Below are positions 2,136 to 44,985 of a stretch of DNA of 64,000 nucleotides, in pieces. Position 1 is the first letter of the stretch; each line of letters begins with the position of its first letter. Source of the DNA: Escherichia coli O157:H7 str. 2011EL-2287 (lineage in GTDB: Bacteria; Pseudomonadota; Gammaproteobacteria; Enterobacterales; Enterobacteriaceae). The stretch lies in NCBI GenBank assembly GCA_000614405.2, contig GCA_000614405.2_3612.1; one strand, 5' to 3'. The position numbers were made by a program, and so were the translations under genes. The notes beneath the pieces were generated by a model. It saw nothing but the letters and a program-made list of their open reading frames with translations, was not told the origin of the DNA and did no database searches.

Positions 2136-4565
2136 ATGAGCATGTGGTCGTTCGACTTTGAGTCATCCGGTTTGCTGGAAGACCCAGATCTTTATTATCA
2201 CTGCGGCCTGTTTAAAGAGCTGAATAAGAACCGTTTTATGCTGTTCCTTCCTCTAAATGACCGCACACACTACTCCGAGGAGGATATAGAAAAGGCTAAG
2301 AACTTCATTCTGGCAAAGAAAACTCTTTATAAAGATTTTGAAGTTCGCATAGCAGATTTTTCAGAGTTGGAAGGTTGGCTTACAGGAAATTCTGACTGGT
2401 CACCAACAGCTTTGAACTGCCATAACTGCTACAGTTATGACTTTATGCTGATGGAAAGATTATCTGGTATTCATTTTGATATGTTCCGTGATCCTAAATG
2501 TATGGGGACTATCAACGATCACCAGGTTAACCTGTTTGATACGTTGGCGATGAGCCGAATCTTGTGGCCTGATCGCCCTTTACCAAAAGGTTGTCCGGAC
2601 TCTGTATTCAACCCGGTTACTAAGAAAATGCAGCCTGTTGGTCCTCACGGCCTTATGGCATGGGGCTACGCCCTTGGTAACCAGAAAGTTCAAATTGATG
2701 ACTGGCGCGATCTTCCGTTATGGAAGTATGTGGATCGTGTATTTGAGGACGTTATCATCCAGGAGCTGCTCTGGAAAGAGCTGGTAGCGGAATCAAAAGG
2801 TGTATTCTACGGCAAATCTGACATGCAGAACTTTATGTACGATCCTGCCAAAGAGAAGCCGAAAGGGTTCAAGAAGATCACCTGGAAGAACGCATTACGT
2901 CGAGGCATGTTGCAGCACTTCCTGATGGAGCTGCAGGCCCGTCAGGGTGTATACTTCGACATAGATGGAGCTATTGCTTTACGTGACCGTTGCGATGCGT
3001 GGATGAAAGAAATCGCTGATCGTGTTGAACCACAACTGCCTTTAAAAGAGCTGTTAATGTCTCAGCGGCCCAAGTTCCCTGAAAAGCCGTTTAACCAAGA
3101 TGGGACAATCTCTAATAATGGTTGGAAATGGTTAAAAGATAAGCTTGGCTATCCTGTGGACATGAGTGCTTTAGAGTTCAAAGCCCCACCTAAGCGAGCA
3201 TTTACCTCTACAGGAGATGTCAGTAAGATGGGGATAAAATGGTGTGAAGAGATGGGCTGCAAAGACCACGATAAGATGGCTGATTTCTTGAGAGGCTATA
3301 TTAAGGGCACCTCCACACCACAACCTTTACCTAAAGAGCTGATGGATCAGGCAATAAGCGATCTGCAGCAGAAGCGAATGCCTGACTGCAAGATACCTAT
3401 GAAAATCAGCAATCAGGACGATATTAAGCGATACCTGATCAGTGCTGGTTGGCTTCCGACAATGTGGAGAACTAAGGATGTAACTAAAGACAGCAAGAAG
3501 AAAGCTTTACCTGATGCAGATGTTGATGCACGAGTATATGCATATATGGACGAGCTTTTGGAGTCAGAGTATTGTGACCTAATTATCAACTTCTGGAACA
3601 AAACTGATGCTAAGTTCCAGACAACCGTGCACAAGTTCCGAAGCTTTCCTAACTCCGAAAGGATTAAAAAGGAAGTATTCGGGAAAATACGTAGAAAAGC
3701 TAGGGCACTTATTACTTCTCCGCAACTGAAAGATACGTTTGGACACCTGTGTCCGAATCTTGAAAAATTGAACGGAGAGATGGCTAAAGATATCGTCTTA
3801 TGGTTATCATTGCGAAACCGCAGATCGGTCCTTGATCCACTCAAGGAGGATAAGGTTGACACTGGTCTTCTTAATCACCCACGCTTGAAGATTGACCATA
3901 AGCTTCCTGCTAAAAGTTCTGGGCTAACAAACACTTCCAGACAGAAACACAGTATTTGTGCAAACATGCCTAAACCATCTCCTAAAGTGGTTATGGGTAA
4001 AGAGATGCGTAGTCTATGGGGTGTTCCTCCGGGATACTTTGAGATCGGTATTGACGGGTCCAACTTAGAGCAGCTTATCGGAGCTTGGGGTGCCTTTGAG
4101 TTCGACAACGGCTTGTATTATGATGTTGTAAGTAACGGGGACGCACACCAAAACAATGCTGAGGCATATACAAAAGTAGCAGGTAGAGAGGTGTCTCGTA
4201 ACGACGGTAAACCTATCACGTATGGGGTTATGTACGGGGCACAAAAAGATAAAGTTGCAGACATGCTGGATATCTCTCCAGAGTTGGGACAAAGGGTAAT
4301 CGATGCACTCTGGGATGCCAACCCTGGTCTTAAGGGGCGCAAAGAGGATCTGGAGAAATTCTGGGAAGCAACAGGTAAGAAGTTTATCTACTCTTTTGAT
4401 GGTCATGCTATCTGGACCCGATCTAAACACTCTTTACTTAATGCATACCAACAGAATGGTGGTGCATCGCTGTGTGACTTAGTTGGGATACTCATGCACC
4501 ACCAAATGGTGAAGCGTGGGTGGTACGATGAAGGTGTTCGTCGTATTATTTATTACCATAAATAA
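2136..4565 (+). CDS. DNA polymerase, family A, exon 1 (3'-5' exonuclease domain plus polymerase motifs A and B); ORF as read stops 2 codons into an intron, true exon end about 4559
   Basis: Exo I FDFESSG; motif A IGIDGSNLEQL; motif B RNDGKPITYGVMYG; ends ...RRIIYYH exactly at the His of motif C (HDE); SD AAGGAG upstream. Confidence 0.88.
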   Translation: MSMWSFDFESSGLLEDPDLYYHCGLFKELNKNRFMLFLPLNDRTHYSEEDIEKAKNFILAKKTLYKDFEVRIADFSELEGWLTGNSDWSPTALNCHNCYSYDFMLMERLSGIHFDMFRDPKCMGTINDHQVNLFDTLAMSRILWPDRPLPKGCPDSVFNPVTKKMQPVGPHGLMAWGYALGNQKVQIDDWRDLPLWKYVDRVFEDVIIQELLWKELVAESKGVFYGKSDMQNFMYDPAKEKPKGFKKITWKNALRRGMLQHFLMELQARQGVYFDIDGAIALRDRCDAWMKEIADRVEPQLPLKELLMSQRPKFPEKPFNQDGTISNNGWKWLKDKLGYPVDMSALEFKAPPKRAFTSTGDVSKMGIKWCEEMGCKDHDKMADFLRGYIKGTSTPQPLPKELMDQAISDLQQKRMPDCKIPMKISNQDDIKRYLISAGWLPTMWRTKDVTKDSKKKALPDADVDARVYAYMDELLESEYCDLIINFWNKTDAKFQTTVHKFRSFPNSERIKKEVFGKIRRKARALITSPQLKDTFGHLCPNLEKLNGEMAKDIVLWLSLRNRRSVLDPLKEDKVDTGLLNHPRLKIDHKLPAKSSGLTNTSRQKHSICANMPKPSPKVVMGKEMRSLWGVPPGYFEIGIDGSNLEQLIGAWGAFEFDNGLYYDVVSNGDAHQNNAEAYTKVAGREVSRNDGKPITYGVMYGAQKDKVADMLDISPELGQRVIDALWDANPGLKGRKEDLEKFWEATGKKFIYSFDGHAIWTRSKHSLLNAYQQNGGASLCDLVGILMHHQMVKRGWYDEGVRRIIYYHK

Positions 4566-4835
4566 CATTGTGGCTTCATAGAGTAATCTATGTCGAATAA
4601 CCTCTTTAACTGCGGGAAGCCTAAACCTTATGGCAAGGTAATCCGCAACGAAGCGCTCAAAAGAGCGAACGCTCAGAGGCCATTCCGAAAGGAAGTAGAC
4701 CAGCAAGTGCGGTCGAAATGGGAGGATTCCTGTGGTTGCTTATCATAGGAATATGAGATGGTCCGATCCTACGTGAAAACGTATGGCTATGCACGTAATG
4801 GTGCGGGGTAGCTTAACGACCTACCTGAACTATTG
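4560..4835 (+). ncRNA. putative group I self-splicing intron (no homing endonuclease ORF) interrupting the DNA polymerase gene
   Basis: 276-nt gap between pol exons; preceded by U, ends in G; contains AACUGCGGGAAG and AAUCCGCAAC resembling group I P/Q core elements; flanking exons restore YYH-DEY (motif C). Confidence 0.6.
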
Positions 4836-42428: not shown

Positions 42429-42541
42429 AGATACTCCGCATCACATTTAGGGCAATGCCAAATAAAATCGTCCAGTGCCTTGCACCAACGAAGATTGCAA
42501 CGACAACCACACTTGCAAATTTTATAAATACCTGTAGACAT
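42425..42541 (-). CDS. small cysteine-rich protein (38 aa, 8 Cys) translationally coupled to nrdG
   Basis: ORF below cutoff; strong SD AGGAGG 6 nt before ATG; stop overlaps nrdG start (ATGA); CKCGCRC...C...CPKC. Confidence 0.5.
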   Translation of the reverse strand: MSTGIYKICKCGCRCNLRWCKALDDFIWHCPKCDAEYL

Positions 42542-42604
42542 ACTGTACCTCCTAGCTCACTGTGTGTCAATAATATGCCACATCCTTGTGGCTTTTGTCA
42601 AGTA

Positions 42605-43867: not shown

Positions 43868-44124
43868 CGGTCCCCACCCTTATGTTTCCACAAGGCCAGA
43901 CTATCTCTTGCCTGAAATCACACCGTGTGATTCTTAATCAGACCTCTGCGTTTCGGAATCTTCCATAATCCCTACACCAAAAGGTTAGTCGTTACAACCG
44001 CCTCACTCCTTGTGAAGCTAGTCACGGGATTGGCATAGCTTGAGCCTTAGCGTTCCCCGTTAGCCAGCGATCAGCTGACCCCTCATACTGAGGTTAGCAG
44101 AGTTTTAAAACGGCCAGTTTGTTA
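43868..44124 (-). ncRNA. putative group I intron interrupting nrdD
   Basis: 257-nt gap between nrdD halves; follows U of GGU, ends in G; minus-strand segments resemble group I core elements (AAGAGAUAGUCUGG, AACGACUAACC). Confidence 0.55.
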
Positions 44125-44985
44125 ACCGTTGACAGAAGTTAACGTATTGATTTGATAGAGCAAAGTCTGCATGCTGTCAAATACGTCTTTATCTGTCATT
44201 TGCATTGCAACAGTCTCAGCATCTGGCAACCAATGTTCTTGGCAAAATTTAAGGTTCTTCTCATAGGTCGCTTCAGCATACTGTGCCAGATAATGATCAA
44301 TATGGCTCATAGTCTGACCCCCATATTGAGCACTAGCTACTGCACTAGAGATTTGGCTAAGGATTGTTGTTGCAACCCCTATTGACTTCGGCTTACTGAC
44401 ATGGGCGTTACCAATGTTGAATCCGTTTTCCAACATATCTGGATAATTTACCAAACAACAGTTTGTTAACGGACTGATCAAGTAGTCAAGATCATGCACA
44501 TGGATGAAGCCTTTATTGTGCTCTTCTGAGACACGGTCTGGCAGGATCTGTGTTGATGCAAGGTGTTTGCTAAGGATGCCTGCAAGCAGGTCACGATGAG
44601 TGTGTACATGATTGGTAGGCTTATTTGCGTTTTCTTTTGTAAATTCATCACAAGTGCGATCCAAGAAGCCACTAATATCTGCAAGCAGTTTTCCACCTGC
44701 CTCTCTGTTATTATCTCTTGTCTGCCTATACTGGATGTATTCTCTGGCTGCACATTTTAAACCCATATCCATAAGAGCGTCTTCAACAAGGATATGGATA
44801 TTTTTTACAGAGATCGTGCACTGGTCGATTGGTAGATTGTTAGCAACAACTTCATTAACCGCGCAGGCGATCCGGTAAGCTTCTTCTTCAGTATGTCCAG
44901 ACTCAAGTAAGGCGGACTCTGCCGCCTTGATCACCTTAATTCCGTTATAGAACTCTTCTCTACCGTCCCGTTTTACAACTTTCAC
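44122..44985 (-). CDS. nrdD: anaerobic ribonucleoside-triphosphate reductase, exon 1 (N-terminal part; ORF as read includes intron-encoded stop, exon end about 44125)
   Basis: 287-aa ORF ending ...YQINTLTSVNG, a conserved NrdD motif that continues as QTPF in exon 2. Confidence 0.8.
   Translation of the reverse strand: MKVVKRDGREEFYNGIKVIKAAESALLESGHTEEEAYRIACAVNEVVANNLPIDQCTISVKNIHILVEDALMDMGLKCAAREYIQYRQTRDNNREAGGKLLADISGFLDRTCDEFTKENANKPTNHVHTHRDLLAGILSKHLASTQILPDRVSEEHNKGFIHVHDLDYLISPLTNCCLVNYPDMLENGFNIGNAHVSKPKSIGVATTILSQISSAVASAQYGGQTMSHIDHYLAQYAEATYEKNLKFCQEHWLPDAETVAMQMTDKDVFDSMQTLLYQINTLTSVNG

Follow-up and report, generated by a model that had tools for sequence, protein, structure and literature searches.

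The anaerobic ribonucleotide reductase gene nrdD, on the minus strand of the window (the whole stretch of 64,000 nucleotides analysed here), is interrupted between the codons for Gly287 and Gln288 by what is almost certainly a compact group I self-splicing intron, IA2-like (of the T4 and Twort type) and without any homing endonuclease gene (HEG). The intron is real and of a well-known kind, its novelty being low. The result matters chiefly for annotation: instead of two ORFs, nrdD should be entered here as a single spliced gene that starts with GTG and comprises 707 codons. In many Vequintavirus genomes on deposit, the gene is given as two or three 'nrdD' fragments. The exons and the structural elements of the predicted intron RNA are listed in Table 1.

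Table 1. Positions of the nrdD exons and of the predicted intron elements in the window; nt, intron nucleotide number.
Feature	Position	Strand	Details
nrdD exon 1	44985-44125	(-)	287 codons; GTG start; ends in AAC GGU (N286 G287)
Group I intron (predicted)	44124-43868	(-)	257 nt; no homing endonuclease gene; begins with UAA, in frame with exon 1
nrdD exon 2	43867-42605	(-)	420 codons + stop; begins with CAA ACC CCU UUU (QTPF)
P1	44109..44130	(-)	exon AACGGU (44130-44125) with guide GCCGUU (nt 11-16, 44114-44109); loop UAACAAACUG
P3 5' strand CUCUGC	44097..44102	(-)	nt 23-28; partner 43949-43944
Two peripheral hairpins (hp1, hp2), P3.1-type optional elements, between P3 and J3/4	44062..44093	(-)	hp1 nt 32-44; hp2 nt 45-63
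P4-P5-P4' (ACGGGG AAC ... CAAU CCCGU)	44024..44060	(-)	nt 65-101
P6 hairpin GCUUCAC/GUGAGGC	44000..44018	(-)	nt 107-125
P7 5' strand GACUA	43986..43990	(-)	nt 135-139; partner UAGUC 43903-43899, nt 222-226
P7.1 + P7.2	43955..43985	(-)	nt 140-149 and 153-170; followed by J GAAAC (43954-43950)
P3 3' strand GCAGAG	43944..43949	(-)	nt 176-181
P8 (GUCUGA/UCAGGC) with distal P8a (AAUCACA/UGUGAUU)	43910..43943	(-)	nt 182-215; site of the HNH gene in relatives
J8/7 AAGAGA + P7 3' strand UAGUC	43899..43909	(-)	
P9 hairpin CCUUGUG-GAAA-CAUAAGG	43878..43895	(-)	nt 230-247; GAAA loop
3' tail GUGGGGACC + terminal G (omega G, 43868)	43868..43877	(-)	10 nt

The first-pass annotation had described nrdD as two minus-strand ORFs separated by about 257 nt (43868-44124), the first ending in YQINTLTSVNG, which proved exact to the base: the upstream ORF (44985..44122, minus strand) encodes 287 aa with that C-terminus and has TAA directly after it, and the frame of exon 2 shows, upstream of the exon, an in-frame TAA and then GWGP-QTPFITLSLGLDTS... 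(translation ...*GWGPQTPFITLSLGLDTS). The same annotation had noted that the gap follows a U, ends in G and holds no ORF. All three observations hold in the sequence, where the preceding base is U (GGU|UAAC), the last base is G at 43868 (GACCG|CAAACC), and the 257 nt contain no ORF beyond one of 10 codons (ATG..TAA). In-silico deletion of 44124..43868 joins GGT to CAA and yields an ORF of 707 aa, with the predicted spliced junction ...GTCAACGGT|CAAACCCC... and the predicted junction peptide ...TSVNGQTPFITL... The joined NrdD displays ATP-cone, NRDD and Gly_radical domains, NRDD being covered in one stretch (Pfam positions 1-562/562). An alignment of the joined protein with T4 NrdD, proposed as a check in the first-pass annotation, gave an unbroken match (1h78; E 2e-167, gap-free across the junction), and a second solved NrdD, 9d3x, also aligns without a gap at the junction; further, the contiguous, uninterrupted NrdD of phage naam is 97.7% identical to the joined protein.

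The GTG at 44983-44985, which overlaps the stop codon of the upstream glutaredoxin gene (GTGA), is most likely the nrdD start, since it gives a full ATP-cone (Pfam, residues 1-91). Records of the BASEL collection begin the gene 71 codons further downstream, with an internal ATG, and most of the ATP-cone is thereby lost. Beyond the other end of the gene, the spacer between nrdD and nrdG constitutes another hot spot: in the window (42429-42604) it spans only 176 nt, with a 38-codon ORF annotated in relatives, in SophiaRose (L003 4063-5223) it holds a T5orf172/MUG113-type nuclease gene, and in naam (L005 4043-4975) a 933-nt ORF.

Sister genomes place the intron boundaries by direct comparison. 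Over the 2.7-kb nrdD region, more than 100 genomes of rV5-like coliphages (Vequintavirus) share 94-97% identity with the window, and the in-silico spliced junction (150 + 150 nt) was searched against a phage collection. It was covered in one place in 90 records, with about 76 uninterrupted at 93-98% identity (naam, PDX, APCEc02 and rV5_ev158 carry such intron-less alleles); in 14 records the junction is split by exactly the 257-nt element, 98-99% identical to the window copy, and 28 further records carry at the identical junction a 797-nt version with an HNH_3 homing endonuclease gene inside P8. By this presence/absence polymorphism, the boundaries are established without recourse to RNA models. 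The claim that removal of 43868-44124 restores an NG-QTPF junction in a protein of 707 aa is thus borne out by about 76 contiguous sister alleles and the unbroken Pfam NRDD match. From the DNA alone, the insert could equally be placed one base over, as deletion of 44125..43869 yields GGG|CAA, the intron-less allele; 44124-43868 is the placement that agrees with the rules for group I introns, which ask for a U at -1 and a G at the end. Five of five intron-less alleles read AACGGG|CAAAC and every intron-bearing allele read has AACGGT|...|CA, so that among the alleles checked the U at -1 (GGT instead of GGG) always accompanies the intron. The element is also more conserved (98-99%) than the surrounding 2.7 kb (about 95-96%), and the stem substitutions among its near-identical 257-nt copies are all changes from Watson-Crick to G.U pairs (4/4). 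As a separate observation on these records, 19 GenBank sequences of the MG0656xx series, entered under the name 'Campylobacter phage', share at least 90% identity across nrdD with the E. coli Vequintavirus genomes (C2, 95.0%), which suggests mislabelled hosts or contaminating coliphages.

The insert also has the sequence and structural features expected of a group I intron, namely a 5' splice site marked by a U.G pair, an omega G, a covarying P3-P9 core, and a host gene restored by its removal. Helix positions were mapped by script. At the 5' splice site, P1 contains the wobble U(-1).G11, and, as judged by eye, the guide tracks the presumed exon strand in other introns: GGAGGU/GCCUCC in L027 and UGGGU/GCCCA in L047, two contigs whose splice sites were inferred from P1 only, and UGAGU/GCUCA in T4. 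J3/4 is AA and lies ahead of P4/P5, and P7 is presumed to be the guanosine-binding helix, in a pseudoknot with P3. A short P10 is possible, in which exon C+1 and A+2 would pair with G10 and U9 (2 bp only); P9.0, like P10, is a putative element of this RNA. The presence of P7.1 and P7.2, after the P7 5' strand and ahead of the P3 3' strand, is reportedly the criterion by which Michel and Westhof (in 1990) defined subgroup IA; in the window intron and its relatives both helices (8 and 9 of the structure) covary, with 97% and 93% pairing. The predicted fold has a minimum free energy (MFE) of -98 kcal/mol, with a z-score of -3.96.

For the assessment of covariation, a covariance model (R1) was built from the window intron and its proposed structure and used to search 100 sources; the model was preferred because MAFFT misaligned the variable stems of diverged relatives, and the MAFFT alignment was left unused for pair counts. 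The search returned 64 matches at E<0.01, and pairs were counted on the R1 alignment of 55 distinct sequences, which is fitted to the model and therefore leans towards the proposed structure. Standard pairs occupy 93.0% of cells, against 59.5% +/- 0.8 in shuffles, and when the 3' partners were slid by 1-3 columns only 39-45% of cells were paired; this large margin over the slid controls supports the structure despite the model-fitted alignment. Changes on both sides were found in 54 of the 58 pairs, with a covariation score of 0.367 vs 0.083. What the first-pass annotation had called core-like segments is accordingly a full group I core architecture. Covariation supports every helix, and it includes the long-range P3, compensatory in 6/6 pairs, and P6, in 7/7; the pairs of P7 are conserved across relatives (G-C, A-U, C-G, U-A, A-U). 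A test of cognate against non-cognate strands, partly circular as the strands were taken from MFE folds, serves as supporting evidence only. The two extra hairpins hp1 and hp2 (helices 2 and 3) are 93% and 96% paired, and the first hp1 column is occupied in 45 of the 55 distinct relatives. As P3.1 is a pairing already listed as optional in group I introns (PMC3873408), hp1 and hp2, which lie outside the minimal core, constitute peripheral variation, not a new architecture.

The Rfam model RF00028 (Intron_gpI) was run in permissive mode, because a scan of the window at the gathering threshold recovered only the intron in the DNA polymerase gene. It scores the nrdD intron at 29.4 bits, below the gathering score of 50 bits, which is an operational cut-off and no biological criterion; the match extends from end to end in the correct orientation (43878-44134), with the right boundaries, at an E-value of 1.4e-5 in a 600-nt search and of 0.0015 over the whole window. 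The Infernal check proposed in the first-pass annotation therefore fell short of the curated threshold, and taken alone it would not have confirmed the intron. The sensitivity of Rfam for this family is patchy: RF00028 gives no match at E<0.01 to the compact introns of L014, L047, L021 and L062, and L027 (53 bits) and L009 (60 bits) pass the threshold. A sub-threshold score is consequently not evidence against intron identity, and the nrdD intron illustrates that the gathering threshold misses real compact phage introns. As to the cause of the low score, the idea that hp1 and hp2 alone are responsible was only partly supported, as L027 passes with both hairpins present, and L021 and L062, which have neither, are missed.

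The other group I intron of the window, at 4550-4785 (plus strand) in a family A DNA polymerase gene, scores 64.7 bits with RF00028; the polymerase ORF upstream of it (2136-4565) ends in ...IIYYHK and has a sub-threshold Pfam match to DNA_pol_A (27.9 bits vs a cut-off of 34.3). Since model R1 gives no match to it, the polymerase intron belongs to a different intron subfamily. The view that two HEG-less introns in one replicon would be notable did not hold, as relatives have up to two introns in nrdD in addition to those in terL and the DNA polymerase gene (PMC3606486, PMC7344957).

After transcription, the RNA would fold into the group I core, with exon AACGGU paired to the guide GCCGUU in P1. 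A free guanosine bound in P7 would then attack after exon U(-1), and the freed 3'-OH of exon 1 would attack after the terminal G, ligating GGU to CAA. The ligated mRNA would give the 707-aa NrdD, and unspliced RNA would terminate translation at UAA, the first codon of the intron. The element represents the endonuclease-less form of a mobile intron, a HEG-less copy that could spread by recombination or co-conversion in mixed infections, perhaps aided by the endonuclease of HEG-bearing relatives. The sequences show where the boundaries lie, the polymorphism, the architecture, the covariation and the kinship with the T4 intron; the splicing chemistry, splicing in vivo and this route of spread are inferred.

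A decayed relic, in which the HEG has been lost, splicing is no longer efficient and nrdD is effectively a pseudogene, with anaerobic dNTPs supplied by the host or by NrdAB (class I), appears very unlikely. The lack of a HEG would fit a late phase of the homing cycle, and the sub-threshold Rfam score and the weak P10 point the same way; furthermore, nrdD is dispensable in some Vequintavirinae, and some members of Certrevirus lack nrdDG (PMC7344957). However, both exons are intact, with the high identity to the uninterrupted homologue given above, all core helices are preserved, every stem substitution among copies keeps pairing, and the intron is more conserved than its surroundings. Less probable still is the proposal that nrdD is a gene in pieces, whose two NrdD polypeptides associate without splicing, like the NrdA of Aeromonas phage Aeh1 that is split by mobE, a precedent cited in PMC3653736 and PMC7344957. 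A stop codon does close exon 1, and two nrdD ORFs are given in many automated annotations, but there is no in-frame ATG, GTG or TTG from the stop of the intron to Met306 (43813), so that an independent second piece would lose the conserved QTPFITLSLGLDTSVFGR; moreover, no evident Shine-Dalgarno sequence precedes the Met306 ATG, and what separates the exons is a ribozyme fold with covarying helices instead of a free-standing endonuclease gene. Translational bypass or an intein can be dismissed for practical purposes: the Gly codon followed by a stop superficially resembles the take-off site of the T4 gene 60 hop, but the gap is 257 nt vs about 50 and the codon before CAA is CCG, with no GGU landing codon, and an intein needs a continuous ORF, which is not present.

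The group I intron reading is also consistent with public annotation. In the GenBank records of the BASEL phages AlexBoehm and MaxBurger, nrdD is annotated as a join of two pieces, of exactly the length that these boundaries give, and the nrdD intron was therefore already recognised; the authors of that collection state that they used comparative genomics to define intron boundaries (PMC8594841). The only introns that the rV5 paper describes are those of the terminase gene (PMC3606486), and a survey of phage ribonucleotide reductases (RNR) finds that, of the RNR genes, nrdD is split most often, rV5 and FV3 being absent from its main text (PMC3653736). For Certrevirus CB7, RT-PCR shows splicing of introns with HNH genes in terL, in the DNA polymerase gene and in nrdA/nrdB, a set that did not include nrdD (PMC7344957); neither a description of the nrdD intron nor a splicing experiment for it was found in the searchable literature.

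The HEG-bearing introns at the same junction (Vequintavirus phages MaxBurger, FFH2, FV3, slur16 and others) are 85% identical to the window intron over their first 141 nt and share J8/7-P7'-P9 with it; they differ in their length of 797 nt and in having larger P7.1 and P7.2. Model R1 matches the MaxBurger intron at 109 bits. In the latter, whose 3' end reads ...ACAG, P8 (GCUCUA...UAGAGU) encloses the HNH_3 gene, which begins at an internal AUG and closes with a stop codon overlapping J8/7. Its P3, CUCUCC/GGAGAG, is compensatory relative to the window pair G27-C177, and hp2 (A-U to G-C), P6 (at two pairs) and P9 (from U-A to C-G) show other compensatory differences between the two introns. A candidate P3 3' strand in MaxBurger, GGCAGAG (intron nt 145-151), was rejected, the true partner being GGAGAG at nt 214-219, after the large P7.1/P7.2. 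The annotated start of the MaxBurger HEG (L002 2674-3234) falls inside P7.2, and the internal AUG lies 9 codons downstream, just past P3'/P8. The Shine-Dalgarno-like GGAGAGG before this AUG is the P3 3' strand itself, so intron folding may control translation of the endonuclease. The P8a hairpin of the window intron and the 5' part of the coding sequence of MaxBurger's HEG match at 17 of 20 positions (pairwise E 0.024), which hints that the HEG-less form could be a deletion derivative of the HEG-bearing one, a signal too weak for a claim.

Further signs of mobility come from L044, a 137-kb rV5-like contig whose intron is identical to that of the window at 251 of 257 positions (97.7%). Its protein identity to the window is only 78% in exon 1, with 97% in exon 2, and a near-identical intron beside a diverged exon 1 points to probable horizontal movement. 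In the window itself, the last 60 nt of exon 1 are of the MaxBurger/naam type and the first 60 nt of exon 2 of the AlexBoehm type. Such exon patterns, in L044 and in the window, are what co-conversion during intron transfer produces, and this mechanism may have generated them. The nrdD locus thus offers a natural series at one site (intron-less, HEG-bearing and HEG-less) that is useful for the study of the homing cycle. Relatives also have a second nrdD intron site, VTSMG|CRSFL (residues 387/388, corresponding to about 43567/43568), at which the window has no intron. L044 carries there (2285-2535) a 251-nt HEG-less intron that closely resembles T4 sunY and scores 70.5 bits with RF00028, and phage 241Ecol014PP (L004 3034-3795) a 762-nt intron with an annotated HNH homing endonuclease, for which the Pfam match to HNH_3 is weak and sub-threshold.

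More widely, at least 120 IMG/VR contigs contain the P4-P5-P4' motif ACGGGGAAC...AATCCCGTG, and 22 compact HEG-less introns were recovered among the motif-bearing contigs. MFE folds of diverged relatives, done independently, display the same helix order with unrelated helix sequences, P3 being for example AUAUACCUU/AAGGUAUAU, CACGGUG/CGCCGUG or CCGGGUG/CGCCCGG. We consider it a tentative and rather doubtful proposition that the window intron represents a large, mostly unannotated subfamily that is compact, HEG-less and IA2-like, with two extra hairpins between P3 and J3/4; if true, phage and virome group I introns could be substantially under-counted by the Rfam model, which often misses introns of this kind, and a dedicated model would recover them. 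In five of the IMG/VR contigs (L014, L016, L063, L121 and L123), the compact introns apparently lie about 14 nt past an ATG (ATGAAATTTGGYGT|GAAT...), near the gene start.

Compact IA2 cores with P7.1-P7.2 are found in Staphylococcus phage Twort and Bacillus phage SPO1, in different host genes, and SPO1-like introns carry an HNH endonuclease (I-HmuI type) in P8. The T4 nrdD (sunY) intron, a member of subgroup IA2 that carries I-TevII, interrupts the same host gene in the same conserved stretch of NrdD. A comparison of insertion positions, suggested in the first-pass annotation, revealed related RNA cores at different sites: the T4 intron splits the Tyr180 codon (GAGT|TAACG...CATTG|ATGAAG; ...AFQAYE-Y-EVNTLFSSNG|QTPF), and the window site corresponds to T4 G190|Q191. 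The window intron is therefore not at the T4 nrdD site, which lies 32 nt upstream. The relationship between the two ribozymes rests on the match of model R1 to T4 sunY (34.5 bits, E 3e-9), not on a global pairwise alignment. Their cores are colinear, including the UAAC start of the P1 loop, P4-P6, P7 GACUA/UAGUC, P7.1, P7.2 and J GAAAC, and they differ slightly in P3 (UCUGCC/GGCAGA in T4 vs CUCUGC/GCAGAG in the window) and J8/7 (AAGAUA vs AAGAGA). The T4 intron lacks hp1 and hp2, its P3 5' strand abutting J3/4, and its core reaches 105 bits with RF00028 vs the 29.4 bits of the window intron. It spans 1033 nt and has a GIY-YIG endonuclease ORF after P9 (intron nt 236-1012), whereas the window intron has none. 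With its different site and no I-TevII downstream of P9, the window intron is not an orthologue of the T4 sunY intron. Taken together, these comparisons indicate that related ribozymes have independently invaded the NrdD stretch ...YEVNTLxSxNGQTPF... at two sites separated by 32 nt.
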